Positions 12,001-33,000 of a DNA stretch of 64,000 nucleotides are shown here, piece after piece (position 1 is the stretch's first letter; every line of letters begins with the position of its first letter). A program made the position numbers and the translations under genes. The DNA comes from an uncultured Planctomycetales bacterium (lineage in GTDB: Bacteria > Omnitrophota > Gorgyraeia > Zapsychrales > JANLHA01). A model generated the notes under the pieces. That model was not told the DNA's origin, did no database searches, and saw only the letters and a program-made list of their open reading frames with translations. The stretch lies in contig CAYJXI010000001.1 of the NCBI GenBank assembly GCA_964374105.1, positions 135,743 to 199,742 of the forward strand, read 5' to 3'.

Positions 12001-15000
12001 TGGTTGCGATCAATGACAATCCTTATTTAGCCGAAACCCTAGTGCATGAATTTTCTGGTGGTCGCCACAAGCAAAATCGGAAAGCCGAAGAAGATTTTCG
12101 TGATTGGTATCGCAGACAATCGCAGAAAGAACGCCCGCAATTTATCGAAATCAAAGGCGGCGATTACGATCCCGAGGCTTGGGCCAATCAACCTTTAACT
12201 TTGGCGGTTGTGGCTTGGTCTCATTACCAGGAGTCTAAAGAAATATTATCCTTCAAGCCAGGCGAGGGTATTAAGAAGCCTAGGCCGTCTCAACAATCGG
12301 AACTTTTGATCAGTAAGAAGGCTTTAACTTCAATTCGAGAGCAAATTGATCAAAAGCTACAAAGTGCTCAAAATAGCATAACCCTTGCGGTTGCCGATGG
12401 ACGAGAAATTGAATTTACAATACACGAAATTGCTGGACAAAAGTTTCTCATTCAAAAAGATTGGGGTGCGCAGGTAGGCCTCTCTGTGGAGATGTTGGTT
12501 TTGGCGATTCAAGATATTGCTTCAAGCAATCGGTATTGGAAAAAGGTAAGAAATCATCAACCCTTTGTCATTATGCCTCTTAATCATATCTATATCTTTG
12601 ACCATCAAACGGGAAATCTGCGTGAGGCCTTGGCGGCCAGCATTACCAGTCACAAGGTCATTGTATTACACGAAAAATTGCCCGAGATATTGGTTGAAAT
12701 TCAGAATAACTCTGCCGCCAAGAAGGTGCTGGGGACATTGGTGTGGCATTTATTGCGTTATGAATTTGTGGAAGAAATTATGAAAGCGGAAACTGATTTT
12801 ATGCTCGCTCAGGAGGACTTTAAATATTTAATGGGAAGGAGTCCAAGATCATCCCAACTTTCCGGTGCGCGAACAATCAGATCTCTCAATAAATTAGGTG
12901 TATTGAATCTCACTTATGTCCCCGTAGATATTCTGGGAGACATTTTGGGATTTAGCTCTGCCTACAATAAACGGATTGTGACAGTTCTCAAACAACACGG
13001 CATGCGCACCATCCGTCAGGTTCTCGAAAGACCCTTAAAAGATTTAACGGAAATCCGGTTTGGCGGTAACAGCCAGGAGGCGGTTATGGCCATCATCCAG
13101 GCCTTAAGATTCTATGGCTGGGTCTTGCCCAGTGATTTAGGCCAATGGTGGGAGGTGATTGAAAAATTAGCGAGAAAAGAAGGCCGCCAGCGGATCCCAT
13201 CCTATCAATATGCAATCGTCCGTTTAGCCGAGATCGCTCCCGCATCCGTAGCCGTCCTGCGTGTCCTCAAAGAACACAAAGAGTATAATGTCTCAACTCG
13301 TTTGAGGGTTATTCACCGTTTAGGACGAATTGATCAAAAAAGCCTTGATGCATCACAAATCAAGATCATTGTTTATGTCTTGGGGCAGGCGCTTTATCAA
13401 GAAGAAAGAGATGATCTGAGACTGGAATTGGTAAGAAGCCTGGTTAATTACGGCAAGGATGCCTTAGAGATTTTAAAGACAATCCTTCGCACATCGGATA
13501 TGTTTTCAAGGGAGTTTATCATTCGGGCTTTATCAAGAAGCAAAGAGACGATTGATTTACAATCATTGCTAGGTGATAAGGAGGAAGATGAACCGCATGC
13601 CATTACCTCACAGTCGCAATTCCATGAAGTAATGAAAGCTATCCGAAAAGGAAATCTCAGACTCGCCAGATGGTTTGGCGTTTTGGGATATGCCTTGAAG
13701 ATTCTCGAGGAATGGATAGCCAAATCCGGACTCATGACTGGCCCGCCGGAATTCGGGAATTCAGTTGCCTATCGTACTTACGATGGGAAGATTATCAGAA
13801 GACTTTCCCACCAGCAGGTTCAAGAAATTCTTAAAACCCACCAGTTTGATGATGAATTAATCCGTATCATTCAAGAACAGATTGATCTGCACGAAGCACA
13901 ACCCACCGAACGCAAGGCTATTTTAGCCCAAAGAAGGACCTTACGAAGACTGATCAAAGAAAGGCGAGTAGAAGCAGTTTCAAAACCCCTTGATTCCCTC
14001 CCCCTTGTGGGGAGGGCTAGGGAGGGGGAGAATTTACAGGATTCACCCTCCCCTAACCCCTCCCATCAAGGGAGGGGAAATAAAAAGGAAGCACTTGATT
14101 TCGAGGTTATGAAACCAGTTCTAGTCACAAATTACCCTGGCCTGGCTGCCAGGACAGGCGGGTCATCCCTCGGCTTCGCTCGGGATAGGCAAGTCACAGC
14201 TCGGGGCTTCTTCGCTCAGAAACGTTTGAACGCCAAACTGCCCGTTCATCTCTGGGAGATTCCATTAGGAATAACACAAGAAGATAAGGTCGCTATTGAA
14301 TCTATCATTTCTAACAATGAGTTTGATGCGGTGACACTCACTGAGCGTCCGGTGAGTGATGCCTTTGCCTCGGTCCGGCGAGTTATTTGGCAGATGAGAG
14401 AGCACATGATTCAGGGACGCTGGGTTCAATTCAAGGAATTCTTATCCGCATTGAAGGAATCTTTGGTTAAAGTATTTAGTGAAAAGGCACGCCGCGACAG
14501 TCTCAATACATTAGTTGATCTCCCGCTAAACGTGGAGGCGGTGTTGCACCTCGGCGCCCAGATGCATGGACGCCAGTTCCTAAAGAAAAGAATCCTCAAG
14601 GCGCAAATATTGGGTGCGAAGGCTTTGCTGGTATTTTCTGGCGGTGGGTTCTTCCAGCGATATATCGTTAAGACTCCTATGGGTCGGTTACTTAAAGCCT
14701 CGGGGATTTATGATCTCTTCCAGCGCATGGATGCGGTAAGAATCATAAGACTTTTAGGTGAGATGCAATCACGAGGCGAGATCACAAACGATCTACCGAT
14801 TTGGATTGTGGTTAATCCCAACGAAAAAGACCAACAGCGGGAATTGGCAGCCCTTCAGGAGAAATTAGATGAATTAAAGAAATTCCGATTCCAAAATGGT
14901 CAGCTTGTTAATGTCGCCATATTAACCCAGCCCTCATTGTTTGCCTTAAATTGGAATACGGATCGAGGTCACTGGCAGCCGACATCTCAAGAGCAAGACG

Positions 15001-18000
15001 AATTTAAAAACTTCTTCTTAAAGGCTGAAGAGCGAGGATTGCTTAACAGCATTCCGGTGATCTTCGGCATGCCGAACTTTTTGTCCCTTTATAATGTCGA
15101 TTTCTGGATTTATCTGGTGGGAAGAAAGGTCAGCAAGGATCGTGCGGCTAAACAATTGTACGAGGTCTTTAAGGAGGCAGACTTAAAAGATGAGAGATTA
15201 GCACAATCAACAAGCCAGCCCAATGTTCATTACGAATTTATCCATCGCCGAAACCTCTGGGCACAGGCGGCCATTAACTACGCACAGGATTTGGCCAAAG
15301 AGCTAAGTTCCACTACCAGCGGCTTTATCTTCCAGCCGGCCACCCGCAAGGCCAATATCCCATCTGTTCAAAATCAAATGAGAGAAACCCAATTAACCGC
15401 GGTTGAGCGCGCCTATCCGGATTTGATGAGACTCACTTCTCTCTTAAAGGAGAAAGGAATTGAATTAAATCTCAATTTGGCTCATCTCGACACTAAGCGA
15501 TTAAGGACACTACGCAATTTGTTGATTGAACTTAATAACGAAAAGCCGAGATTCTTTGAGTTGAGCTTAAACGATAAGGCGGTCTTAAACATCTTACAGG
15601 CGAATCCGGTTTTGGTGGATGCGATCAGTGAAGCGATCAGTCATTTAGGCGTAAGGGTTGAATTTACCCCGCATCTTAAGGAATCAAAATATACAAAGAT
15701 CCTTTACGAGGCGCTTTATGTAGTCTGGCGGGCGCTGTATTTCTTAGAGGCTCAATACCGTCCAACGCGCATTCGTGTTGGGGTCATGACACATCCCCGG
15801 CAGACCTTCCAAATCAATGTGGCGGCCCGGCGGTTTATGGTCAGAAACGAAAAGGGTCAATTGAAAGATACCGGGCGCTGGGAATTGCCGATTAATCTTG
15901 AACCGTTTATTATCCATTTGAATGAAGAGGTCATGCTTAATAGTACAGTCTTCGGTGAGGAAATTGACAAGATTTTACAGCGCATTGTCAAGAATGAACC
16001 GATGAGTAAGGGTGGAACTTTTATCGGGAGCGGTCAACCCACGCGCCTCAAAGACAGTGTGATTTGGAAGATCGGCCAGTATTTCTGGGAACTGCACGAT
16101 GAATTCGTGAAGGTCACCAGCGGCAGGGAAGATTACCGCAGCCGTATCGGCGGCACACCGGATAGTGTTGAGGAATTTGTCCATTATCAGGTTGATGCGA
16201 TTTTTTCCGAGATGGTATTGCCGGCCTTAAGAAATAATCGGCAGGTATTTTTGCGCAGCATTGGTCCTGGCGTTCCAGACTTTGATCGCAAGGCCTTGGA
16301 TCGAATCGCGGCACTGGCTCAGAAAGAAGGAATAAGTCTTAAGAAGTTTGAATATGTCTTTGAAGATAAATCGGCAAAGGTCATCGAGAATATCAAGGCT
16401 GTTATCGGCTTAGAAAAAGATAAAAAGACCGGTATTCGTGTCAAGTATGTGACAAGGGACATCAAGGAAACATCTTCGGATATTATCGATCAAGAATCGG
16501 TCAGTGTGGTGCGTATGGCTAATGTCTTGGGTGTACTCGAAACCGACCGCATGGCCATTATTGACGGCAAGATGTATCAGCATGAGGTCATAACGCATCT
16601 GCCGCCAGGTTTTGACGAGGAGTTAGCCGCGGCTTATAGTTTAGACAAAGAAAAATTGATTCGTGACCTTAGAAAGCTAAACGATGAAGAAAGTGTTAAA
16701 TCATTCTTTACCGAGTATCGAGGTTTGATTGGCGATCATCACCGATTCTACCAGTTCTGGCAGGCGTTCTGGGGCCATGAGGATAAGCCGCATACCGGTA
16801 TCAAGAATGAAGAAATCTTGGTGGAGATCCCGCAAGAGAAACTCAAGGACTACGCTTTCCTCAACGATGAGGTGCTTAAAGATTCCGGTGAGATCTTGGT
16901 CGAACTCTTACAAGAGGTTCCCGAAGGGATTTCTGATATTCGGTTCTTGACTTCTAACGGGGCTATTGAGGCCCTGCTGAGACAATTAAATGTCGCAAAG
17001 TCGGTCAGGGAAACCAATGTCATCGTAACCGATCAGCGGTCGTTCTACAATGTCCGCCGCATAACGGTTCTGCATAAATATGATGCCTCGATGGCGGGAT
17101 GGATTAACGGTGTTACCTTGATTAAGGCTATTGAGCGTAAGTTTCAGAATAACGTCCTCATTAATATTCAGTCAGTGGCTAAGCTGATACCCGGCATGGA
17201 TTCCTTTAAACGCTGGTTGCATATACAAGTAACAAAAGATCCGCTTAATGTCAGCGAATGGTTGACAAGCTTTAACTTACCGGGCGGCCTGCGGGAGTGG
17301 ATCTTTGAAACAGGGACGGGATTTAATAGTCTTCGCACTTGGTGGAATGATAAGAAGCGTCGTTATCCGCATCAAGGGGTGGATTTGGCTAAGTATTTTG
17401 ATGGGGAAGGAAATATCCGGGCAGTTGTGCCTGGGACAGAGATCCCATTGATTGCGGATGGCGAGGTTGTCCGAATCATTGAAAATGGCAAGACGGAAGA
17501 ATTCGACTACATTGGTCAGACCGTGATTGTTCGCCATAATATTATGAATTATCACGGTGAGTTTTTACATTCGAGTTTCGGTCATATGAATCCAGTGGCT
17601 GGCTTGAGGTTAGGTCAGTCCTTAAAGCGGGGCGACACAATCGGCAACGTTGCCGATAGCAGAACCCGTGGCCTGCGTGTCGCCTCGCACCTGGATTTCA
17701 CTTTATTCTGGGCGAAGGCGGATGTGGATTATACAAGGATCAATTGGAAGGTGATTAATCAACGAGAACCAATCCTAGGGCTGGTGAATCCGCTGCCTCC
17801 AGATTCAAGCAACAAACCAATAGATCCTGCCAAGCCGCGTGAGGGAAGAACTGAGGCAGAGGTTGTAGCTAGGTTCAATGAATTAAAGAAAAGGAATTTC
17901 AAAGGATTCCCTGCGATTTATCCGCATAATATCCCGGATTGGGTCTTAATGGTTTTGGGTTATTACAACTATTCGGGTGATCTTGTTCGCTATGGAAAGT

Positions 18001-21000
18001 TAATTGAGCTCATCAAGTCAGGGAAACTGCGTGCTGGACCGGATAAAAAGGAAATATTCTATGGTGCCAATGACACTGAGACATATCTGATTGCCGCCAA
18101 TGATAATCCTTTCAAGGCTGAAACACTCATTCATGAGCTGCATGGCGGCACGCATGAAGAGAACGAAGAAGCGGAAAGAAAATATGAGAAATTCTTTATT
18201 GGAGTGGTTCATCCTTATCAAATGGCGATTGATGAATCTATCAATATTATTATTGAAAAGCTCATTGGGGAATTGGACAGTAAGACAGGCAGAGGGGACA
18301 GTCCCCCTGCGGGGACCACCGCTATCGCGGGGCAGGCAGTCCCCTCTGCCTCAGCCATCGAGGAATTTGACGCAACGAGAACCTCGCAAGAACCTTATCT
18401 CATCTGGCAGATCAACTATCCTTCCGAGAATGCCATTCTACTGAAGACTCGTCTGCGATCTGGGTTGAAGCTGACCATCCTACCGAGGGTTTCTGATGCG
18501 AATGATCTTTCTTCCCTTGGGGAAGGCGAAGCCGATATCTTAGCGATTCAGATCAAAGGTAAGGCAACGCTTGCACCTCATGAAATCATTCATTCCCTTT
18601 TTACAAAGATTCAAGAAGGCGGTTTTATTTTGATCCACAATGATCAAGTGATTTTGACATTGGAGAAGGTCAAAGGTGGACTTGAAGTTAGGGGCTTGTT
18701 TATTAAGATGAGCGTCGAACAGCAAAGAAGCTCCCAGTGGAATATTGATCGACCGACCATTTATCTTCACCGTCAGTCAGCTGGTTTACTGAAATCTCTT
18801 GGGCCTAAATTCTTCCTTAATCCTAAGCGGTTGAGCGATTATTTGATGCTTCATCATTCATTTGCTAAATATTATTTCATCATAAAGAAAATAGAGGCCA
18901 TCTTCAAAACTGCCTTTGCAAAGACCATGGATTGGCTCGAAGATCAGGATGAAGAATTGTTGAAGGCAAGGAGAGAAATCGATGAAGTGTATAGGGAAGA
19001 GAAATTCAAAGCCATGTTTAGGTATAAACGAGCGATTAAGGTGCACCTGTCTTTCAACACGGATCTTATTATAGCGAAACGCATGGTTTCGACTTTCAAG
19101 AGGTTAGGTTACGAATCAAAAATTGAGGGGCCGGTTGTTACCTTAACCCGATGGGGCAAGAAGGCCATTCATTATTATGTTTATATCGCCTTGCCGGCTT
19201 TCAGCATCTTAAAAGATCATCTTGTTATCAAAGAGATTTCATCGCCAGGATCTAACCCTGAACCCAAAGAAAAGGAGGTTTTGGAAGAGATTGAGAAAGA
19301 ACCTGCTAAGGAGGATCTTCGCTTGGCTGAGGCCAAGGCCGCCCATGAAAGAGTTAAGAGTCTTCTGGTTGTTGTCCAAGAAGAGCTCCTGAAGGAAGCC
19401 GATCAACTTATAAATAATCCTGATCCCTTCTGGCAAGTTAACGTTAGCATTATGCGAGGCTGGTTTGAGAACCTTGCAAAAGAGAATATCCAATTTAATC
19501 AGGCTATCATGCTAGAAAAACTGCGCTTTGATCGAAATTACTGGAAGTATGATTTGGTCAAGATCCCATTTTTTATTAAGCTCCTTCTTTCCCCACAAGA
19601 GGAAGAGGTGTACGAGGCCTTATTAGCCAATTTGATGTTTATTTGGTATCACCTTGAACCTAAGAAAGAGGAAAGAGAAACAAAAGAAAAGTCTGATTCG
19701 CTTCAAAGAAAGATTAAGGCCTTTGAATATTTACATAAATTGATTACCAAGATGATGATTGTTGTGAATATTCAGGAGATCATAAAGCAGACAGATAAAA
19801 AGGTGCGACAAAATTATTATGAAAAAGGGGACAGTCCCCCAAAGGGGACAGTCCCCAATGACAAAACTTATGAATTTTACAGCGGCGGTGAATTAAAGAA
19901 ATTGGTTGAGTTCTTTAAGGAAAGTTCAACCACTTATCAACTGGTTGAAGCCACAATGGGTTTGATTAAAGATTACAACGATGTTGAGGTTGTCTTCAAA
20001 GAAGACAAGCCAGATTCTGGTAACCTAAATCTTTCAAAAGGACTCGGAATATTATTGACTCTTGGTCTTATCCACAAGATTCTACAAGTCTTTACCAAAC
20101 AGCCTAAGGAGGAGGCAGTCAGAGTCGCTCAAGTTTTTGATTTTCCGTTGTTTGACTCTACGTTTTGGTTGACGGTTCTTGTTATTGGTGTCGCCTTTAT
20201 TGGAATTATAACCATAAAGAGCATGATAAAGAAGCAATGGATTCGTTCTTTGATGAAAACATTTAAAGATCAGAATCGAGATCTTAAAATCCGAGCCAAG
20301 GCTTTACGGAGATTATCCTTTTTATTCAGTGGAAGGAAAGAGGAAGTGATTTTAAAGACTTTCGTTAAAGCCCTCGAAGAGAAAAATCTTGAGATTCAAA
20401 TTGAAGCCGTCCGAGGTCTTGGGCTCATTGGAAGTGAACCAGACTATCTGCCTTATGTTTTAGATATCCTCACGGAGTTAATAGTGCGCAATGAAAGAAT
20501 CGTCAAAAGGGTAATGCCTGTTAGGGAATTGAGGCAATTCGTACCATATAAGCTTCTACAGGAAGTGGCGGTGAATATAGGTGAGATAGGGAAGCCCGCT
20601 TTATCCGAACTGGAAAGATATATGGGATTGTCGCTTGATACCTCTCGGACAATCATTGCCTGGGCGTTAGCACTCATCGGAAAACCGGCTTTAGCGATTC
20701 TCACCAAGGCCTTAAGCGAAAATGACCTCGCTAAGAGAGCCACTGCGGCCGAGGCCGTGTCTTACTTAAAACCACGAATAATTAAGAAGTCTATTCATGC
20801 TCTTCAATCTTCTCTCATCGACCAATATGATGATTATCATTACATGAGTTTAATTCATGTTTATGCTTCGCAGGCGTTGGTAAAGGTGGGAGATCGTGGG
20901 GTACAATTCTTAATTGATTTAGCCAGATTCCATCCCAAGATGATGACAAGATTCAGGGCCAGAGATGCCATTGAGGGGATTACAACACCCAAAGTTCTCG

Positions 21001-24000
21001 TACAAACCATTCAGGTATTGCTTGAGACATTGGCAAAGATAGATTCCCATCGAAAAGAAGTAGAGGCCTTCCCTATTGTTGCCTTTAAAGATTATCTTGT
21101 CCGATCGCTTGAAAATACTCCCCAAAAATTAAAGAGGGAGTTTAGAGCCTTATTAGATCAAAAGAAGGCAACAAAATATGTCAAAGAAGGATTAGCGCTT
21201 TTGATTAAGGCTTGGGCGAGTGGTGAAAAATATATAAAGGATCTTGCCGATGAGCTTTTATCGGAGGTTGAAGAAAAAGGGGACAGTCCCCAAAAGGGGA
21301 CAGTCCCCAATGATATGTTTGATGCTTTAATCTTTTTATCCCATCAAGAAAATTACAAAGAGTTTGTTAAAGATTTACACAGAATTGTCTGGGAGACCGA
21401 ACAGATCCGAAGCCTCAAAGAAAAGACTCGTGCCTTGAGATTCCTTTCCATTGCTCCAGGAGAAACAACACCGGAGGCCTTAAAGACATTATTACTTCAC
21501 GAAGATAAGGAAGAAATAAGAATAGAAATCTTAAAGACTTTAAAGCAAATCGAGGCTCGACAATTCAAGCGGCGGGATTTCTTTAAGGCCTCTTTGTTTG
21601 CTGTGGGTGCATTGGTTGGACTTTCCTTAAGAAAAGGTCAAGGTCAAGCCATTAATCCAGAAGAACCCTTAGATTCTAAGAAAGGCATTGGTTTCCATTA
21701 TGCAAAGAGAATTGAGTTCAAACCATTTGATGAAACCCAATTCGCAAAAGACACACTTGCCTTGGAGGTCTTTGTGGTTATGGGTGAGTTTATACTTGAA
21801 TATGCCTCCCTTTTAAAACAGAAGAATCCCAGTGATCTTGACCAAGCAGATCTCAATCAGTTTAGACAGCTTAAGGCAAGAACAGTCGATCGACTTTTGA
21901 ATATTGATTTACGAATCAGTCGAGAATTTGCGGGCTTTTTAGATCAACCGAGTTTAAGTCAGGAAGAAGAGACTCGCTTTAATCAGGTTGTCTACCATAT
22001 TTTGCCGCGTTACTTTGCCAAACGCGGAATTTATTTCTACACCGAATGGGAATTGGTCCGGCACAATCAAGGGTGGCTCGTTTTGGATCAATTTGGTCTT
22101 TATCGAGTTGATCAAGTCGAAGAATACAAGCAAACCCTTTGGGAAGGCCAAGAGGTTGTTTCATCAGAAATCCATATCTCGGAAACCATGCAACTCAAAG
22201 GTGTCCCAGTTGAGAGCAAAGCCAATATTTTGACTCCTCATGAGAAATATCTCAATGTCTTTATTCCCAGAGAATCGGTTTCTTCTGGGGTCATGAACAT
22301 ACAGACACTCCTTGACGTAACGCTTAAGCGATTCAAAGATGATCCAACGATAGGACCATATCTCACTAAGGATTGGGAGGTGATCTCAAAACAATGGAAG
22401 AAAGATCCTCTGCATTTTGCAATCTTAAAACTCCTTTTGGAGTATGAAAATATTCTTACAAACAAAAAGCTGGGAGAGCTTTTTGTCGAAACAAACAGGA
22501 TCCACGAGTCGTATCACATCTTAGAAATTCTTTTAGGCCGAAGACCCTTAAAGTCGGCCATCTCTGCCGATCAAGAACAAATGCGACGATACTTTGATCA
22601 AAGGATTGTGACCAGTGAAATGGGTGCTATGATCACTCAATTGCGATTTGCCTCGGCGGAACATTGGCGATGGGGATTCAATCGATTCCTGGATACATTT
22701 TATGAAGAAGAAGACTTCAACTGGCGGGTTCGGGTCTACAAACCTAAGTTTGCCATTATTGATTTTGTAATCAGTGCCATTGAGGATAACCTTCAAAGTT
22801 TCTCCAATATTGTTGTGGAGGATCCCTCGCCATGGACAAAACGAGCCCAGATTGCTGCCCAGCTCTACAAATTGGATTATGCTCAGTTTATCAAGCTGAT
22901 CAATGCCGCCCACCAGTGGCATGAAAGAAATTATAATAATCCGATTATCCCGGATGGTCTTCTTAGAAACGATCTTTATTCAAAACGGTTAATACAACAG
23001 AAAATCTATTTCCCCACTTGGTTTGAACAATGGGGGAAAATAGTATTAGGGGTTTCCGCTGCCATGGTTAGCCTCATTATTGGCGGATTAACAGTTTGGT
23101 ATTCCAGAATAAAACATAAGGCCAAGAAAGAAAAAGGGGACAGTCCCCAAATGGGGACTGTCCCCAAGGAAGGGGACGGTCATGATCCCACCCGAAGCAG
23201 CCGGCCGCTCAGTAAGGTAGAGAGAAAACGCCTCTCCCGCATCCTTGATCGATCTGCCGAAGAGATTCGCTCAAGCCAGCCCGCCTATGAAGACCAGAAA
23301 CAAAAGTTGGCATCACTGATCCCAGCCGAATTCAACCATGAATTGGAGATCCTCAAGTGGTCGAGGGTGATCAATGCACCGCCAGCATTGGTTGAGGCGG
23401 TCCTTACCCTTCAGTCAGAAAGTCCTGATAAGTTAGAGATCCAGGCCTTAAATACTCGCTTGGATGATCAAGATTACATCATCCTCCTGCCAATCAATCA
23501 AAACAACGAAGAGCAAGTCCTTCGCTCTATCCTTCATGAAGTTCGGGCGATCAGTCTGCGAGGCAAGGCTTCCACCGAGGAGATTCATCGCCAGGCGGAA
23601 GCCTTTGAGCAATGGGTCCAGACTTCATCTCTAAAGCAGGTGAGCGATGAATCCCAAAGACAAGATCAGACAGCGGAGGTATCGGATGAGAACAAGACCG
23701 ATCCGCATCAATGGAAAAATGCCGGAGATATCCGTTGGGCATTTGGTCTTACCAAGGGAGTTGCCGATCAGCTTTGGGAACTCTGGCAGCACATGCAAGG
23801 AAGGCATGGCGAGTATGCTGTTAAGGAATTAGACCGCGGCCTCAGCAAAGAGAATATTAAAGTCAGGGGACTTCCGGCAGAAAAATGGATTAGGGAGATA
23901 CGACCACAATTGAAAGGTTTGAGCATCGGTCGAGTTGTCCATTTTGCCTTTTTTCATATCTTAGCGAAGGACTTAACCCGCCACCTCCCTGTTCTTGAAC

Positions 24001-27000
24001 AATTGCGTCAGGAAGCTGAGGCGCATCATCAGGACTTTATCCTTTTCCTTGAAGATACAGGACCGAATATTCCTGAAGTCGAAGGCTATGAGAATTATGA
24101 TGATGACGAGCTTATTGAGGAGGCGCAAAAAGATAAAGAGTTAATGGCGCTATTGCTTGATTTCTTTATCAAGATGAAAAAAGTCAATCGGGGGTATGCC
24201 AGGAATCTCGAGAAAGGTATTGTTCCCAATGAATGGAAGAATCTTGTTGATGAGCGGATTCCTTTGGAAAAATTGCAGTCTTATGGTCAGGCGGTCAATG
24301 CCTATAGGGCACGGAATCGGATCAAAACAGAAGAAGAGGACATTTCCCCTGAAGACTGGCTGGAGAATGAATGGCAGACGGAAAAGGTTAAGAAATCCTA
24401 CGATCTTTATTTTGATGGTGATCTGAAAGAAAAAGAGGATCGTCAGCAGTTTGTTGAAGCACGGGTAACCCTTGAGCCACGTATTATGAAATTAATGAGA
24501 AGCCGAAACAGCCAGATAATCTCAAAAATTCTTTATCAAGTCTCGCTCGGCCGTGTGGTGGCTTCACTCATCGGAGCTTCGCACGATGGAATCGTGGAAG
24601 CCCTTCAAGCCCAAGGGGTGCATGTCGAGCGCTCTCCCACGGGTCAGGATCAATCCCGGATCTTAGAGCATATAGGCGGAGGCAGTATCGGAGGGATTTT
24701 AGCTGCAGGTAGATCTATCGATTTAGAGACAAGAGCCTTTTATTATCTGCGCATTCCGGTTATCGATTTATTGATGGGAATAGCCTACAAAAATGAATAT
24801 AAAGATACGCTGGCCAATTACAAGGTTATTGGACCGATGACTCACCGCTGGACGATCGAACACATGGCAGGTCTAGTTCAGGCCACCTATGAGAGTAAAC
24901 ATGAAGAGTATATTCAAGAATGGTTGCGTCAACATGCTTCCGAGGAAGAACGCATTATATTTACAACCCAAGGGCAAGCTCAAGGGGACAGTCCCCATTC
25001 GGGGACAGTCCCCTTGAGCAACGGTGGGGAACAAGCACTACACGAGAAAGGTGGCCAGGCTTACAAGCCGCAGGATCACGATGAGCCAACACCATCAGAG
25101 ATTCCGGAGGAATTCAAATCAGCAATCCAGCAAATCATCGGGAATCAGGTTGTGGATATGAAACCCGCACCGTGGCAAGCCTTATGGCTTCTGGTTTCTC
25201 AACAGACACCTGTTAAGGCAGTGGATGTAAAGAAGAAGATCAGCCGCGTTAAGGTTGGCAAAAAATCAGCGAATCTAGCGGAAACGCAGATTAATCAATT
25301 GGCGAAACTCATCAATGATGTTCGACAAAAGCAGGAATCTCAAAAAAGAAAAGAAGAAGGCTTCCTTGTTCTTAAAGAGGATCATCCTGGGTTGAAGTGG
25401 ATGATCAGGCAAATGCAAAACTATCAATTACTTGAAATCATGCAACTGGCTTTAGCCATTGTGCATCGTTATGATACGCAGACACCGTTTGTGGATGAAA
25501 AACAGCTTATGGCGACTTTCAAACGTTTCTATGAACTGGCCAGACGCGATGCCCTCCTCAACGCATACATCCATAGCCATTCTAGAATGGATATAAAAAT
25601 GGGATTGACACGTCTGGGTAAAGTTCTGATAGAGGAAAGGAAGCCCCTCGAAGCGCATGATCAAAGGAATATGGCTATTATAGCTCGAGTTGTGTTAAGT
25701 GTTCATAGTGAGATTGAGCTCGATCAGATTTTGCCAAGGGAACCCAGCAGGATGGAATTGCATATGTACAGTAACCGCCGGGCTAAAGCAGAACTTAAGA
25801 AAACAGAATTCAGCGATGAACAACAGAAATTGCTTTTGGCTGTCTATGTGGTCCTTGGCCTGGTGGCATTTGATGCGGCGACCAAGGAACCGTTGATCAG
25901 CGAGGCGGGGATGAAAGAGATGATAGATCAATTGGAAAAAGAGCAAGTATTAGAAAAAAGTCTTTTGGAGCTTTTCGCCGATTATATTAAGCAAGATAGA
26001 GCCAAAGCGCCGCAAGACAGACAAAGTCCAACATTACCGCAGCCTGAGCTGCGCAGGATCCTGCAGCAAGTTTCTTCCCGTTTAGCGTTAAAAGATCCAG
26101 AAGCCGTTGTTTGGTATTTAACACGTTTACTCTATCGCATTAATCGCGAAATCATGACAAGGTATGAAGTCTACCGCAAGAAGTGGCTCTTAGAATTGCT
26201 TAAAGTCTATCCTGGCGGCATGCATTTGGTGAGCGGTGGACCTTTCAGCCGGGAAGTCATGCGGCATAACCTCATGGCCGGGCAATTTGTGGCCGCCCTC
26301 GCTAAGATTCATGACTGGTTTATTTCCCAAAAGATACGGACAGACCGTGTCCTTTATGAATTCGGTGGAAGCGATATCACAACCGTGCTTTTCTTAACGG
26401 ACGCTCAGGTGATTGAAATCCGCGATGCCCTGCCTTTTGATTTAACGGCTCAACCGGAAGATCATGAAGAATTAAGAATGCTTTATTGGTTCGAGAAGGC
26501 GTTATGGAGTTATACCTCTTCGGAAGATTTATGGATGATTGGTAATGCTAGGGTGCCGCTCTTGTGGGAGATTGAAAGTTTAGGTGTGGAAAGAAAGGAT
26601 ATTACGATTGAAAAGGATGCCGGGCAGGAGAATACCTACATCATCCGTTTCCCTTGGGCTTATGACGGCCGCAGGGAGAATGAAGTACCACGGACCATCA
26701 TCTATCGGGAAATGGAAATTAAGGAACCGAAAGGCATCGTTGCAGCCACCCAACCAATAACGTCCGAAGAGGCATTTGATCTATACTTGCGCAAGGCCGA
26801 TGCCAATAATCCCAATCAGATCCCTCGATTACCGGTGATTATCAAGTTTGGCACTATTCCCGGAGGACTTTCCGGATACCATCGTATTCCCGTAATAGAC
26901 ATCCCCGAATTCCCCAGGGAAATGGTATTAACGGTCATGAAAGACGAAAGGGAATACGCGAATATCAAGCATGGGGAGATCTATATTAGAGAAGAAAGCT

Positions 27001-30000
27001 GGAAGGGGGCAAGGGGGGCAAGGGGGGCAAGGGGGGACAGTTCCCAAATGGGGACTGTCCCCAATGACAATGAACCCAATGAAGGGGGCGGCCATGACCC
27101 CACCCGCTCCAGCCGGCCGCTCCAGGATAGAGAAATTGAAAAAATTGAGGAAATCTTGGCTAAATATCAGGCCTTGATTAAGGGTGCTTCGTCTCTCTAC
27201 GAAAGGTTCAAACAAGCTGTCATTGACGTGTTAAGCAATAATCCTGGATACCGACAAGAAGTGGATATCCTTAAAGGCGCTAAGCTAATTAACGCCCCAC
27301 CTCAGATGTTGCCCGAAATTTATGCTCTTCAAGCAGAAAGCCAAGACCTGACCATTTATGCGTTGAATACAACTGTTGATGGTAAAAATGCTATTCTCCT
27401 TCTGCCTGCCACCCGCACAGATGAAACCCAGATCTTCCGTTCAATCCTCCACGAAATCAAGGCTATTCAATTATGGGGAACCGCAACCCTAGAACTCATC
27501 CACTCTCAGGCGCAAGCATTTGAAGAATTAGTAGAAAGAATTCCATGGCCATCCGTTCAGACTGTTATCCACGAATTCAACGGCGGTACCCACGAAGAAA
27601 ACGAAACAGTCAAAGCGGAATCTAAAGATTATCGACAGGCGGAAGCAGAAAGTTCGATCCCAGAGCCATCGGCTGCTCCTCACGGACAAACGAAGGGATC
27701 TAAGAAGAATAGGCAGCACGCCAGCATTCCCGAATTATTATCTGACTTATCGGATCCGGATGAATTTATACGTTCTGAGGCCGAGATTGAACTCAGCCTC
27801 AAGGATAGACTGCCATGGGATATGCTTTTGGGATATATCAAGAATCCTCCCATTCCTGTCAGGGATGATGAACGCTATTCAGCCGGCCAAGAATATAATC
27901 CGGAAGCCATTCGCAGAGATATTCGGATTTCAATCCTGAAAGTCCTGGGGGATAGCTTGAGCGATGAGGAAATAAGCGGCCTTAAGGGGAAAGCATCAAA
28001 ACGGGACAAGGTCAATAAAATCCTTCAGGGCATGGCTCAACAATGGAAACAACAGGACGACCTTTTACTCACCCAGTTGATCACGAAGAATCCTAATAAT
28101 CCTCTTGGCACAGAAGAATCGCTGAATTTATTGCAGGTGATGGCGCTTTTGATTCATTGGTATATCAAGTTAATGAATAAAGACAAAATTAGGTGGCATT
28201 ATGATTCCCCAGAGGAGATTCTCGATTATACCTTAGTTATTTACAGCAGAAATAATTGGTTTAGCCTGTACTATTTAGGTTATGTTTATGAATCTATCCG
28301 CAAGATTTATCCGGAAATTCAAGATGCCGTTGGTGAGATCCTATATGGTCTTGTCTTCAAGCAAATCAAAGGTTCACGGAAGGCCAAAGAGAAAGAAGAT
28401 CAGACTATTCAATTGAAGAGAAAATCTCCGAGACCTTCCGCAAAGGGCCGCAGAGGATCTAAGAAGGCTGACGAAGAGAATCTTCCGCCAGCCATGCAGC
28501 CAAAGTTCAAGGAGCAATTTGCGGAGGCGTTCGAGCACTCAGAAGAGAGGTTATTGGTTGAAGCGATTGTTCCGCGATTAGAAGAGCAAAAACGCGGTTT
28601 CTGGTGGCGGACTCCTCCCGAAAAATTCGTTGAGGATCACGAAGAGGTTTTTAATACCAAATTAGGAAAATGGCAACCACCTACTAAAAAGGAAAGAGAA
28701 ATCCTCCTTGAGCTTGCTAAAAAAACTGATCGCGCTTTCCACCGTGCCCGGCGGTTTGCGGTTTATCGAATAAAGAAAGAGATCGCCCAAAATGGAAGTT
28801 TATCGTTAATTATGCGATTGATTAATTCTATAAGATTGACTGTTTTATTGAGAATGGCCATTGCCTCTCGTGAATTTGGTCTTAAGGCCGCCATCCGCGT
28901 GCATCAAAGATTTAACCGCAAGCCCAAGTTTGGTTTCTATGCCATGGCTTCTGTTCCCAGTGATCAGAAAGATCATTCCTCCTTAACCTTTGAGGACATT
29001 TTAAGTGGCGAAAGGTTGCTGGACCATCCGGTGGTTCGGGAGCAATGGGAAAGGATTCTCCTTGATCAAAAGATCATTCATCATGTGACCAGTCGTTTAG
29101 CCAAGCTGTTGAAGAGATATAAGAGTTATTTTCGAATTCCGTTGTCTGAACGAACGGAGATTGAATCGCTGATCCCATTTGAGCAAAATCAAGAATATCT
29201 CCGGTATTTCTTAAGTTGGGCCTTTTTAAGATTCGAGGCAAAAGGCTTGGTGAGACTCCTGTCGGCTGGTTTTGATGATGCAGTCGACAAACAAGCCCGA
29301 CGTTTTGCCGCCACTCTTATCCTCGTCTTGGCAATCAAGAAGGCCGAACTTAGTGCACAACTTTTGGCAAGGAACAAAGCGACCCTTAAGATCATTGAAC
29401 AAACCCTCTCTTCGCCAGAGGTGTCTCTCCTTGTGATGCAGGAAGAAAAATCCCTCACAGCATTTAAGGAATATATCTCAGCCCAATGGGCCAAGATCCC
29501 TCATCTATCAGCCTCCTTGAAAGAACGACTGCTGAAACACGTGTTTGAGCTTTGGGAAGAAATTATTTTGAAACCGGCAAGGTTTACACCCTTAGCAGAA
29601 GAATATCAAAATAAGTTCTTTATCCGTAAGGATATTCAAGCTGCCTTACCAAAAGAATTTAAACAGAATCCTTTGGAATTCTTAACAAAGATTCAAAGAG
29701 TCACCCGGGATTCCCGATCTCCGGGGTTGGGGGATATTTCGATCTATAAATTCCCTCATGTTTACAGCCTGTTGTCGATTAAAAAGGATGTCTTGGAATA
29801 TCCTGATTATCGTTCAGACAAGGTTATGCGTTTTGAATTAAAGGATGATCGTACGCTCTTTTTGAAGCGGGTTGATTTTTTAAGAGTACTCCAACCGGAT
29901 GAGGAGATTCATGAGGCTCGTCGGTTCAATCTGGTTTTACGCGCCGCGGGTAATGAACGCTTTGCGGTCGAGGAATTTGTTGGGATTGTCATGATCGGCG

Positions 30001-33000
30001 GCTTGTTCTACACCCTGGCGGTTGGCGAGCTTAAGGGTTCCAATATGGAAGATTTTGATAAGAAGATCCTGCGCCGGATGGTTAATAAGGCCACCTGGGA
30101 TGAGGACGAAAACATGTACGACGCCTCAGTTTTAGGTAAGATCATTGAGGTGAATATTCCCGACTACAGTGATCGCTTCCGTATGATGAGGCGGAAATTC
30201 AATTCAGAAAATCAACTCTTTGATCCGAATACCTTTGCCATGCTGGCTGAGCCCTTCTTGACGGCCCTTTACGTCGCGGTCAAACGCGGCTATCGTGAAT
30301 TGCTTTCTATCGTGAATCCTCACGGCATTGAATTCGCACCTAGAGACATTATCTGGACCTTAGGTCCGCGTTATGAATTCCGGTTTATCCTCCTGGATTT
30401 CGAGACGTACTATAAACCGGATTTGACTTTAGAGACAGAGGATATTGAGAAATATCATTACTGGAGGCAGCGGTTGTCTTTATCTAAGGGAGAGGAGGGA
30501 CATCATCCTCAAGACCGCCACCCACCTGCCATGCAGCCGAAGTGGGAAGAGCGTTTTGAACGTGTGCAGACCGATAAACAAGGGGTGTACGATTATAAAA
30601 AACATAGGACGATGAGCCAAGAAGAGTGGTTCGTCACGGAGGTTGTCTCTCAACACGAAGAACGCGCCCGCGGATTCTGGTGGCGCGCCTCACCGGAAAA
30701 ATTCGTTCAAGATCACCCAAAAGTATTTTATCGCGCCCGCAACCGATGGGATACACCTACCCAAAAAGAACGTGCCATTCTTTTAGCCCTAGCTCAGAAA
30801 TCTGATCGTTTCTTCCATCGCGCCCGTAAGTTCGCGGTTTATAAAATGAAGCAAAATTTCTTCCATAAGCCGTTGATGCGAAGGTTGGTGCCGTTATTTT
30901 TGATCGGTCGAATGATTGATTTTGTGGTCAGTTTTGGAATTGCGTTTGATTCCCGCCAGTTCGCTTTAAGGGCGGCCGTTAATGTCCATAAGCGTTTTAA
31001 CCACCGGGTTTTCCAAAAGGGTGGTTTCTACGCAATGGCAGCCAAAAATGTGAAATATTCAATCTGGTCTAAACCCGTTAAAGAATTGTTCAATACCCAA
31101 TCTGGTATCGGTGACTCAGAAGCAAAAGGTAACAGTCACATTTTAGGAAGACAGACACTTGCCATGCAGCCGAAGTGGCGAGAGGCTTTTAAACAAATCA
31201 AGACGAAGGACCAAGCGGAAGAATTCTTATGGCAAACTGCTATTCAGGAAGAGACTGAACGTACTTTGGGTTTGAAACGTCTAGCATGGCAAGAATTTGT
31301 AGACAAACACACAGAGGTCTATGACGTGAAAACGGGTCACTGGCGTGAACCAACAAAACATGATCTCAGGGCGCTAGGCCGCCTAGCCCGTAAGATCAAT
31401 AAGATTTTTTATGAAGTCTTAAGCGATGCTCTTGTTTCCTTGTACGAAAATGTCCGAATAGATTATGAGGTCAACTATCCGCATATTGACAACGAAGAGC
31501 GTAAACGGCTTGTTGAGACTGAAGTCAAAGAAAAAGCACTCAAGGCTGCCCTGTATACCGCCATTGAGGAACATTACTTCTATAATCTCAATGTAATGCA
31601 AGCCGGCCAAGGCATCCTGGCGATGGTCAGTAGAGAAGGAGATAAGAATCGGAAAGATAAGAAAAAGATTCATAAAAAGGAAAAGAAAACTGAAAAGTTA
31701 ACGGCCAAAAAGGTACATGATCGCGCTTATGAAGCATTCGCTCAGTCTTTAGGCGAAGAAAGGTTTACTGAGCATAGCACGATCAGTGTTTTTAGTGAAA
31801 AAGGATGGATGGCAATATCCTTGAGCCTGGATGAATTAATTGATTGGTCCATCGCGACAACAGACGTTTTTTCCTCTGCCTTGGAAATCCTTGAGCCAAT
31901 CCTCGCTGAGGTTGGGAGCAAAAAGTCAGCCGAGGAGATTGTGGATTATTTTGTCGGATATTATGGAGAATATATAGCGAAGAAGGATGAACTCGATACG
32001 AAGGACGATTCCGCCTTGGAGCACGGGTTTAAAGATACCCTCCAGAAGAGACTTGGGCAGCCAGAAGAAGAAACTACGGAAGAAGTTGATGAATTAGATG
32101 ACATTGAAGACGATGATGATACTTATCCTTTCGCCATGCAGCCAAAGTGGCAACAAGCATTGAGCGAGGCCTTAAAAGCCGGGGATACCGAGCTGCTGGA
32201 ATTTCTAAGAGTGACCGCCCACCAAGAAGAAACATCCAGACACCGCGATACCCAGCCGGTCTCTGCCGAAGAATTTGCTAGATGGCATACCGAAGTCTTT
32301 GATGCTAATCTCATGGACTGGCGGCCGGCTCAGGAGGCGGATTACACGATCCTACTTGAACTCGGGTGGCAGACCGATACTATCTATTATCACACCTTCC
32401 AAGTAATTTATCGTTTCACCAGCGACATTGAGCGGGCGCATCATGTGGCCCTTAAGGTGGCCGCGGAAATTCATCTTCAACATAACCTGCATCAGTTTGA
32501 GGCAAGAGTTAACCCGAAAGAGCGGCCGCGCATTCTAGCTATTTCCGCAAGGGGTGTTGCCCATCAGTTTGTGGAGATTCCTCATCAGGTTTATGTGATT
32601 TCGGGTAACGCCTTGGTCGAGCAGAAAGGCCTTATCGATTTTGGAGTTGCCGAGGTTAGCCGTTATCCGAATGCGGTCGTAAAGAATGTTGCTGTTGAAA
32701 CAACCGGCGCTTTAATTCATGGCGGTACGATTTGGTGGGGTGTGAGGCCAGAGTTGAAAGATCGCCGCGATATCACCCTCGAATACCGCAAAGGCCAACC
32801 TTACCACGCTTGGGCCGGGGATCGGTATCCCACCAACTTCTTGCATCAGCCGGATAAGAATGTTCAAGAAATCACCGTTGAACCGGAACTGAGCAAGAAA
32901 GAAATTCTTTTGTGGGATAAAGGTGAATTGGTCTTGGCCTCCGGCCGCATGCGGCAGCAGCTTATATATTTCTCTATTTCTTATGGCGAAGAGCGGGCCT

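Follow-up and report, generated by a model that had tools for sequence, protein, structure and literature searches.

Why does one short palindrome recur in close pairs inside a single giant gene? The question was raised by a 64,000-nucleotide (nt) stretch of contig CAYJXI010000001.1 (assembly GCA_964374105.1, forward-strand positions 135,743 to 199,742; hereafter the window), from an uncultured bacterium placed in the phylum Omnitrophota. The initial annotation of this stretch reported that the 13-bp palindrome GGGGACNGTCCCC forms 4-nt-spaced pairs within an open reading frame (ORF), and argued that the DNA and not the peptide is conserved. Frame +3 of the window has 0 stops in 21,332 codons, compared with 872-1,693 stops in each other frame; since the whole window is one ORF, all copies are intragenic. 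We conclude that they are probably copies of a hairpin repeat of the kind represented by repetitive extragenic palindromes (REPs) and the repeats of REP-associated tyrosine transposases (RAYTs), tolerated in linkers of the encoded protein.

The paired palindrome and its stem-loop

No other 10- to 16-mer is as frequent in the window as the palindrome. It has 10 exact matches, all within 18294-27062, against 0.00 expected from dinucleotide-preserving shuffles, and 11 matches against 1.55 expected when up to two mismatches are allowed. Five pairs have a spacer of 4 nt (19827/19844, 21279/21296, 23136/23153, 24984/25001 and 27033/27050). Four of these positions had been reported exactly; the last pair starts at 27033 and not at 27031, and its first copy is GGGGACAGTTCCC, with one mismatch. 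The partner of a sixth copy, at 18294, is interrupted by 21 nt. This element at 18288 had been classed with another at 7647 as a diverged relative, but it is a full member, with an exact copy 1 and a split copy 2. The 7647 element is a weak relative: it was not recovered at up to two mismatches to GGGGACNGTCCCC, has a different inner hairpin and lies directly upstream of a transmembrane (TM) helix, and its membership of the repeat family is weakly suggested at most.

As first described, copy 1 (GGG GAC AGT CCC) is translated GDSP (GDSS at 27033) and copy 2 (G GGG ACA GTC CCC) is translated GTVP. The 'two phases' of that description are the 17-nt offset inside one 30-nt unit. Within the window every unit has identical orientation and identical codon phase, the first copies all being read in one phase, and the codons are identical in all copies (for the centre of copy 2, see below). 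Units 23136 and 27031 had also been called mutually inverted, which is wrong: in both, only the centre of copy 2 is changed, to T instead of A. Three units have about 41 nt in common (GAAAAA-pair-AATGA), and the outer flanks are unrelated between copies.

GGGGACNGTCCCC is identical to its reverse complement, and two direct copies are therefore inverted copies as well. Each unit forms a 13-bp stem with a 4-nt loop; the folds of the five simple units range from -25 to -38.5 kcal/mol, with z-scores of -4.2 to -8.9 over all six units (Table 1). A central A.A mismatch is present in four of the six stems. In units 23136 and 27033 the centre of copy 2 is T, a synonymous change from ACA to ACT (Thr) by which the central A.A becomes an A-T pair. 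Two stems extend beyond the repeat itself: GCTCAA/TTGAGC bring the stem at 24984 to 19 pairs with one A.A mismatch, and GGCAGA/TCTGCC lengthen the outer stem at 18288 around a nested inner hairpin. Since these stems run into complementary flanks, neither a peptide nor a paired protein site provides a rationale for them, and the pair is best interpreted as one stem-loop and not as two adjacent binding sites. Rfam returned nothing above its gathering score for these hairpins, the best match (30 bits against a cut-off of 53.1) being an unrelated plastid hairpin of a 3' untranslated region. A scan of the window for sigma-70 promoters gave background level only.

Table 1. Copies of the palindromic repeat in the window, a possible relative and the host ORF (folds in kcal/mol)
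Feature	Positions	Strand	Structure	Reading	Fold	z
Nested long hairpin copy	18288..18350	+	GGCAGA + GGGGACAGTCCCC + CTGC + GGGGAC(21-nt insert)AGTCCCC + TCTGCC	GRGDSPPAGTTAIAGQAVPSA	-45	-4.45
Hairpin unit	19821..19861	+	GAAAAA-GGGGACAGTCCCC-CAAA-GGGGACAGTCCCC-AATGA	EKGDSPPKGTVPND	-25	-4.6
Hairpin unit	21273..21313	+	GAAAAA-GGGGACAGTCCCC-AAAA-GGGGACAGTCCCC-AATGA	EKGDSPQKGTVPND	-25.5	-6.1
Hairpin unit	23130..23170	+	Perfect 13-bp stem, copy-2 centre T	EKGDSPQMGTVPKE	-30.6	-6.1
Hairpin unit, flank-extended stem	24978..25019	+	GCTCAA-...ATTC...-TTGAGC	AQGDSPHSGTVPLS	-38.5	-8.9
Hairpin unit	27033..27062	+	GGGGACAGTTCCC-AAAT-GGGGACTGTCCCC, one G.U pair	GDSSQMGTVP	-27.6	
Possible decayed relative	7647..7700	+	AGGGACAGCCCCT + hairpin spacer (CCTACTTTTC/GAAAAGTAGG) + AGGAACAGCCCCT	RDSPYFSAGKVGTAPTF	-24.4	-5.2
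Giant ORF, host of all units	3..63998	+	Frame +3, stop-free, open at both window ends			

The repeat in other genomes

We scanned 185,579 species genomes for two copies of GGGGACNGTCCCC 0-12 nt apart and obtained at least 120 loci. The matches listed include at least seven loci in Omnitrophota, many in Planctomycetota, and others in Kiritimatiellae, Lentisphaerae, WOR-3, Aminicenantes/Acidobacteriota, the candidate phyla radiation (CPR; Patescibacteria and Saccharibacteria), Actinomycetes, Oxalobacteraceae, Coriobacteriia and further groups. Among these listed matches spacer length is characteristic of the genome, and between genomes it varies from 0 to 12 nt or beyond; it equals 1 modulo 3 in 15 of 18 coding copies compared with 39% overall; the length of the unit is then a multiple of three. 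In-frame hosts are the genes of methionyl-tRNA synthetase (MetRS) in Patescibacteria, of valyl-tRNA synthetase (ValRS) and the ATP synthase gamma subunit AtpG in Saccharibacteria, and of CobD-CobQ in Planctomycetia; in Omnitrophota they are miaB, a GT4 glycosyltransferase gene and a 2,011-aa ORF. For miaB, MetRS, ValRS and AtpG the family matches continue on either side of the insert. A WOR-3 ORF (L035; L and P numbers are our labels for loci and proteins) carries in frame a 30-mer identical to the window unit at 24984. Outside the window all three codon phases are used, Omnitrophota miaB included, so that the repeat is not always read in the same phase.

Individual loci indicate that complementarity is what is preserved. 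At position 13023 of L137 (AGGGTCAGTCCCC / GGGGACAGACCCT) pairing between the copies is kept and the symmetry of each 13-mer is broken; L107 (position 899) has three paired changes between copies, and L138, L139 and L119 have an A...T outer pair between copies. In a few cases the compensation is found within one copy instead (AGGGACTGTCCCT, TGGGACTGTCCCA and CGGGACAGTCCCG). We relied on individual cases, as the pooled counts of compensatory changes (between-copy 104/94 versus within-copy 98/100) were uninformative, being contaminated by non-adjacent combinations and control loci.

Omnitrophota miaB was compared among orthologues. In the metagenome-assembled genome (MAG) E14 this gene, which scores above the cut-off of the NCBIfam equivalog TIGR01574, has three units that read MGTVPKRRGQSP, GQSPKKGDSP and MGTVPKRRGQSP, in phases other than that of the window. 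The readings seen in Omnitrophota miaB are GTVP..GQSP, GQSP..GDSP and GTVP..GDSP, and 36 of 119 orthologues contain at least two diagnostic tetrapeptides, at three loop positions. Seven orthologues were compared as DNA. At site 2, the linker before KIWETD, every one of the seven genomes has the stems and their A5/T5 flanks, with loops that vary (AAAAAAA, AAAAGGC, AAAAAGC, TTT or 25 nt) and a copy-1 phase that varies as well (GQSP versus GTVP). A stem that is kept while loop length and phase change argues that complementarity, and not the peptide, is maintained. Site 3 is filled in some orthologues and empty in others, and the L138 gene has the variant AGGGAC...GTCCCT at all three sites. Four-fold synonymous sites among the seven genes are saturated (identity 0.30-0.54). 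For the codons of shared palindromes identity is 0.9-1.0 in the pairs L012/L137, L012/L141 and L137/L141, and 0.47-0.96 in other genome pairs, in which phases differ or the L138 variant is involved. The miaB copies carry a T-run on the sense strand.

Copies are also found between genes. In Omnitrophota (L017, L024 and L072) and Aminicenantes (L041) intergenic units lie 25-70 nt past a stop codon, with an A-run before and a T-run after them, and look like bidirectional intrinsic terminators. Further copies lie on both sides of a Y1 transposase gene in Planctomycetota (L044 and L060) and Kiritimatiellae (L007); these Y1 genes match PF01797 with scores of 27-57 bits (cut-off 23). In all orthologues of the L044 enzyme that were fetched (L143-L147, at 65-72% identity and from other samples) copies lie 78-106 nt before the gene and 16-20 nt after it, and the intergenic regions nearby contain more. 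The motif does not flank the Y1 gene of L148, a homologue at 50% identity. The motif-Y1-motif layout is that of the REPtron/TIRtron of RAYTs. With identical nucleotides read in three phases, intergenic copies and copies flanking Y1 genes, the first view that DNA rather than peptide is conserved is borne out. These comparisons show a family defined by nucleotides and complementarity, whose members are found in intergenic DNA, flanking Y1 genes and within genes, where every phase is used.

Further repeats and repeat arrangements were also seen. Head-to-tail arrays of the 13-mer are present in L114 (1529-1670), L027 (5310-5397) and L031 (246-300); that of L114 (Allosphingosinicella) has an 18-nt period and a GTAG tag, and an array in a Lachnospiraceae MAG has a 25-nt period, with the AATGA known from the window after its copies. 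The 3' end of miaA (L137, 13000-13075) carries the motif as a nested four-copy variant. The miaB loops that harbour the hairpin in some Omnitrophota contain other simple repeats in others (CTACGAA x4, CGAACGA runs and CACAAGAG-type repeats, in site 1 of L140 and L142 and sites 1-3 of L141), and many miaB orthologues have other palindrome-like inserts (LPAGQAGS, CLSGRQA, KSQIPNPKSQIPN). Small GIY-YIG nuclease genes adjoin miaB in L140 (9577-9954) and L142 (7026-7325), and such a domain is fused to the MiaB N-terminus in P0037. The Saccharibacteria ValRS gene (L057, 2556-5201, minus strand) has two copies of another translated repeat, KDPRVKPEDD, and the atpG gene (L084, 4790-5731, minus strand) has VIPAKAGIH; both look like further repeat families translated in CPR housekeeping genes. 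The peptide words of these other translated repeats gave no literature matches. For words of the GGGGACNGTCCCC type the only literature match was an unrelated paper on human antisense oligonucleotides.

Host protein and origin of the window copies

From its Pfam domains (GT1/GT4, Bac_transf, PALP, HEAT, SNF2, methyltransferases, HAD, His_Phos and PPDK_N) the product of the ORF is predicted to be a giant multi-enzyme protein, with GT4/GT1 glycosyltransferases, a sugar transferase, a pyridoxal phosphate enzyme, an SNF2 helicase, HAD and histidine phosphatases and PPDK-like domains. Among the giant proteins of Omnitrophota a 'multi-enzyme' class has been described (bioRxiv 10.64898/2026.06.07.730766), and this architecture fits it; palindromes and hairpins are unmentioned in the Omnitrophota giant-gene literature examined.

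The location of units in linkers and at module boundaries, the latter already pointed out in the initial annotation, is supported. Unit 23136 has a predicted TM helix (aa 7680-7698) on one side and a PTRSSRPL module on the other, and unit 27033 immediately precedes another such module. Six paralogous PTRSSRPL modules lie at aa 7713, 9012, 18277, 18798, 19258 and 20473; a unit is found upstream of two of them, and the remaining four have unrelated linkers. In a full HMMER search with aa 8250-9449 as query, homologues stop at query position 760-763 or begin at 770. Since unit 27033 occupies 761-771, it marks the junction of modules that are found separately elsewhere. That search returned distant module homologues only (up to 43% identity), none of them across a unit, and the paired signature was present in 0 of 25 homologues of neighbouring modules. 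One protein (P0127) has KGDSSHFS...TPND at the linker of unit 27033, which may be a decayed copy. No homologue was obtained in a protein search with aa 6401-7800, and a metagenome scan with window-type flanks gave 3 matches, all unrelated. The units are spaced 1.45-2.05 kb apart. Tandem module duplication with a conserved linker was rejected because the segments between units are not homologous to one another, and repeats of the cyanobacterial HIP1/STRR type were rejected because HIP1 occurs only once in the window.

The same ORF contains other repeats. A tandem 9-nt repeat, GGGGGGCAA x3 (GARGARGAR; 27005-27032, plus strand), directly adjoins hairpin 27033 and repeats part of its 5' arm, and looks like slippage seeded by the G-run. 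Three tandem paralogous modules of about 700 aa (37-61% identity) span aa 10863-12928 (nt ~32590-38786), and repeats of ~150 aa form a long series at aa 9460-16760. A second in-frame palindromic element, unrelated to the GGGGAC units, consists of nested inverted repeats CCCTCCCC.../...GGGGAGGG at 13990-14085 (fold -57 kcal/mol) and is translated DSLPLVGRAREGENLQDSPSPNPSHQGRG. A perfect 25-nt hairpin, GCCATGAACCAAGATGGTTCATGGC, is identical at 42867-42891 and 44220-44244, in two paralogous modules (ILAMNQDGSWLAMA) whose flanks are 77% identical.

The shared codon phase of the units is explained by the register of the flanking GAAAAAG. This word precedes three units and occurs 26 times in the Glu/Lys-rich ORF, in phase 0 in 23 of the 26 occurrences. 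Most other placements would be removed by two constraints: one alternative forward phase would turn the AATGA flank into a stop codon, and two reverse phases would bring in Cys, which the giant protein avoids (2 per 21,332 residues, at aa 17469 and 19183). Copy 1 invariably has A at its centre, which gives Ser and never Cys, and the centre of copy 2 varies silently, a pattern consistent with a purifying filter against Cys. Distant homologues of the modules are also nearly free of Cys (0 of 7,439 residues in P0123, 0 of 5,942 in P0125 and 0 of 4,935 in P0128).

We propose that the copies were made or kept alike by a nucleic-acid process acting at the DNA level. The most probable agent would be a Y1 transposase (HUH, IS200-like, of the RAYT type or of the terminal inverted repeat-associated, TIRYT, type) acting on the single-stranded hairpin, and gene conversion between copies may assist. 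Copies would have entered the giant ORF by hairpin-directed single-strand cut-and-paste or copy chemistry, or by conversion from other copies, and only those that were in frame, stop-free and Cys-free, in tolerant linkers, would have survived. Each unit would be translated as about 10 small, flexible Gly/Pro/Ser/Thr-rich residues (GDSP-x-x-GTVP), with plain translation through GDSPQKGTVPND and no skipping expected. The copies are presumably neutral for the protein, and would persist because they are 30 nt long, a multiple of three, stop-free in the frame used and located in linkers.

Several observations weigh against this proposal. Insertion into the giant gene is argued by analogy with miaB site 3, and the flanking Y1 genes, from which we infer delivery by a transposase into the giant ORF, belong to other genomes. 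The sole Omnitrophota Y1_Tnp gene seen (L137, 5806-6477) has another hairpin at its flanks, AAATAGGGACACATCCTATTT and its complement, with nothing but the core AGGGACA in common with the motif; this Y1/RAYT gene near miaB was therefore rejected as the cognate enzyme. The window copies have neither the classical GTAG/CGTC tag of REPs nor the downstream T-run of the miaB and intergenic copies. All six are clustered in 9 of 64 kb in one orientation, which is not what random insertion predicts. Control scans of viral contigs gave 2 loci for GGGGACNGTCCCC, 0 for one control palindrome and 11 for another, GGGGTCNGACCCC, numbers too sparse to calibrate the recurrence across phyla; since GGGGTCNGACCCC also forms pairs, paired G4...C4 palindromes are a general class. 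Finally, the motif is nearly restricted to miaB within the surrounding 12-21 kb, and this scarcity, together with the retention of site 2, is no less compatible with a selected cis function than with a purely selfish element. Regarding the control palindrome itself, at least six pairs of GGGGTCNGACCCC with 4-5-nt spacers occur in one giant-virus contig (IMGVR GVMAG-S-404869-41; L125-L127, L130, L132 and L133) and are, from their arrangement, an analogous viral hairpin repeat family.

A cis function shares its origin with the proposal above and differs on why the copies are kept: the hairpins would be selected as cis-acting RNA or DNA structures, for antisense termination, for protection or processing of a long mRNA, or for pausing of transcription or translation at module junctions. 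We regard this as possible, though rather unlikely. The miaB site-2 stem, present in seven of seven genomes despite saturated synonymous sites and changing loops, speaks for it, as does the motif being found almost only in miaB in its surroundings, but this conservation belongs to miaB and not to the giant gene, gene conversion or re-insertion could also maintain hairpins, and the sense-strand T-run in miaB would be harmful if active. The resemblance of intergenic copies to bidirectional terminators points the same way, and so does the position of units at module junctions. Read on the sense strand, none of the window units has a T-run behind it; read on the antisense strand, three of them (19827, 21279 and 23136) match the pattern of a hairpin with a T-run (TTTTTC at 19827), the best match being unit 23136 with 13 pairs. 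Having an upstream A-run and no downstream T-run, these three are terminator-like on the antisense strand alone, and sense transcription would be spared. Against this, the scan was a pattern match only and found 17 terminators where 11.7 were expected, no Rfam family matched, and the units occupy only 9 of the 64 kb. In a stronger version the hairpin, a transposase-linked element found across phyla, would have been domesticated into an intragenic cis-regulatory structure, would be selected at fixed positions such as the miaB linker throughout Omnitrophota, and would mark module junctions in giant genes. We consider it unlikely. If it were true, junction hairpins would block antisense transcription or pace expression, in-phase copies would allow modules to be gained or lost in frame, and the hairpin would be a tool for building and maintaining genes of more than 60 kb.

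The remaining explanations are less probable still. If the giant gene grew by fusion of neighbouring genes, intergenic terminator or REP hairpins might have become linkers, which would agree with the gene-like spacing of 1.45-2.05 kb, the mutually unrelated segments between units, the hairpin at 27033 exactly between homology blocks that are separate in other proteins, and the hairpins directly downstream of genes in relatives. We find this improbable: stop codons, ribosome-binding sites and start codons have left no trace near the units, miaB carries the element inside an undivided single-domain-boundary gene, no unit is found at any other module junction in 64 kb, and the protein search found no unfused ancestor. 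It is very improbable that the units are recombination signals by which modules are deleted, duplicated or shuffled in frame, through a recombinase or through homologous exchange between 30-mers. Exchange between units would stay in frame thanks to their single orientation and phase, and they are nearly identical over 30-41 nt and lie at module boundaries; however, Pfam scans of the whole window found no recombinase domain in the 21,332-aa ORF, the units are direct and not inverted, miaB, other housekeeping genes and intergenic DNA carry the element singly, the modules that separate the units do not form one cassette family, and the GAAAAAG register already explains the shared phase. We give hardly any weight to the view that each 13-mer binds a dimeric protein on double-stranded DNA, as an operator, nucleoid site or restriction/modification target. 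A perfect 13-bp palindrome whose centre base is free is what dimer sites typically look like, and in some genomes compensation is within a copy (AGGGACTGTCCCT, TGGGACTGTCCCA and CGGGACAGTCCCG), but spacers of 0-12 nt and more leave no fixed protein geometry, compensation between copies breaks the symmetry of the 13-mer, the flanks are complementary, and the motif is tied to Y1 transposases, which act on single-stranded hairpins. Least of all do we favour selection on a peptide linker, EKGDSPxKGTVPND with its KGD/RGD-like triplets, whose nucleotide identity would stem from recent duplication. GRGDSP and KGD resemble cell-adhesion peptides, all six units are in one frame, and copy 1 always has A at its centre (Ser, never Cys) in a protein with 2 Cys. 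This explanation is nevertheless largely refuted by identical codons with zero synonymous variation in every copy, unrelated flanks, complementarity that reaches into the flanks, other frames used for the same nucleotides elsewhere, non-coding copies, and homologous modules without the paired signature. Thus, of the roles first suggested for the palindrome, a miniature element inserted in frame fits best, and operator or nucleoid-protein sites, restriction/modification and cassette shuffling are unsupported.

Known repeats and significance

As with REPs and REPINs (REP doublets forming hairpins), the element is a short G+C-rich stem-loop, multicopy, often in dimers or clusters and mostly directly downstream of genes, and as with REP/REPIN and RAYT systems it is found on both sides of a single-copy Y1 gene (L044, L060 and L143-L147). 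Its 30-nt units are of REP size (an imperfect palindrome of about 20-40 nt that forms a stem-loop). Unlike REPs, it has no GTAG/CGTC tag (the window flanks are GAAAAA/AATGA, GCTCAA/TTGAGC and GGCAGA/TCTGCC, and GTAG is seen only in the L114 array), the arms of its stem are themselves perfect palindromes, and the window copies are all intragenic and without a T-run. Whereas classical REP families are mostly species- or genus-specific, the same 13-mer occurs in many phyla. Di Nocera et al. (2013; PMC3733652) describe flanking repeats with a common GGGGWSAS around TIRYT genes, some of these repeats being self-complementary, dimeric and closely spaced; GGGGACAG fits this motif and flanks Y1 genes, a likeness judged by motif. 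The same paper describes in-frame intragenic REPs in Opitutus terrae, in Rickettsia conorii (the Rickettsia palindromic elements, RPEs) and in others, with dimers that encode 20-30 residues. In Opitutus terrae (Verrucomicrobiota, in the Planctomycetes-Verrucomicrobia-Chlamydiae group) monomers or dimers of GTAG REPs interrupt many ORFs in frame, at times twice per gene, much as the window units do, but these REPs are another sequence family, tagged by GTAG/GTGG, and neither conservation at orthologous sites across species nor copies in giant genes were reported for them there (PMC3733652).

Intrinsic (Rho-independent) terminators share the G+C-rich stem and short loop, and the intergenic relatives lie between an A-run and a T-run as terminators do; the window units differ in being inside a translated ORF with no sense T-run. 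Unlike shufflon or dif-like sites, they are all direct, and the ORF encodes no recombinase domain. The likeness to RPEs is insertion in frame at permissive sites of functional ORFs (here the giant ORF, which stays open, and miaB, MetRS, ValRS and AtpG). RPEs are found in many unrelated genes, housekeeping genes included, are translated, are located in surface loops or linkers, and are found in non-coding DNA too; Ogata et al. reportedly presented them in 2000 as 'selfish DNA in protein-coding genes', and we know of no transposase linked to them. RPE-1 is about 100-150 bp and RPEs are restricted to Rickettsia, whereas window-type units are 30-47 nt, have a different host and are probably unrelated in sequence. 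Short G+C-rich palindromic mobile elements that invade coding regions are also known from yeast mitochondria, as GC clusters or double-hairpin elements and as 'byp' elements. These are organellar, and byps are skipped by the ribosome; the window units, in contrast, are stop-free and a multiple of three, so that plain translation suffices.

If the units are such repeat copies, a striking feature of a giant gene would be explained without a new mechanism, and in-frame insertion of REPs, known in Rickettsia and Opitutus, would extend to housekeeping genes of Omnitrophota and CPR and to giant ORFs. For annotation, GDSP..GTVP, GTVP..GQSP and GLSP..GDCP in proteins of Omnitrophota, CPR, Planctomycetota and WOR-3 should be taken as translated repeat DNA and not as domains or adhesion motifs. 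The association of one hairpin with a clade of Y1 transposases may provide a tractable enzyme-substrate pair. The hairpin kept at one position of miaB despite synonymous saturation would serve as a test case for whether intragenic REPs are selected or homogenised.

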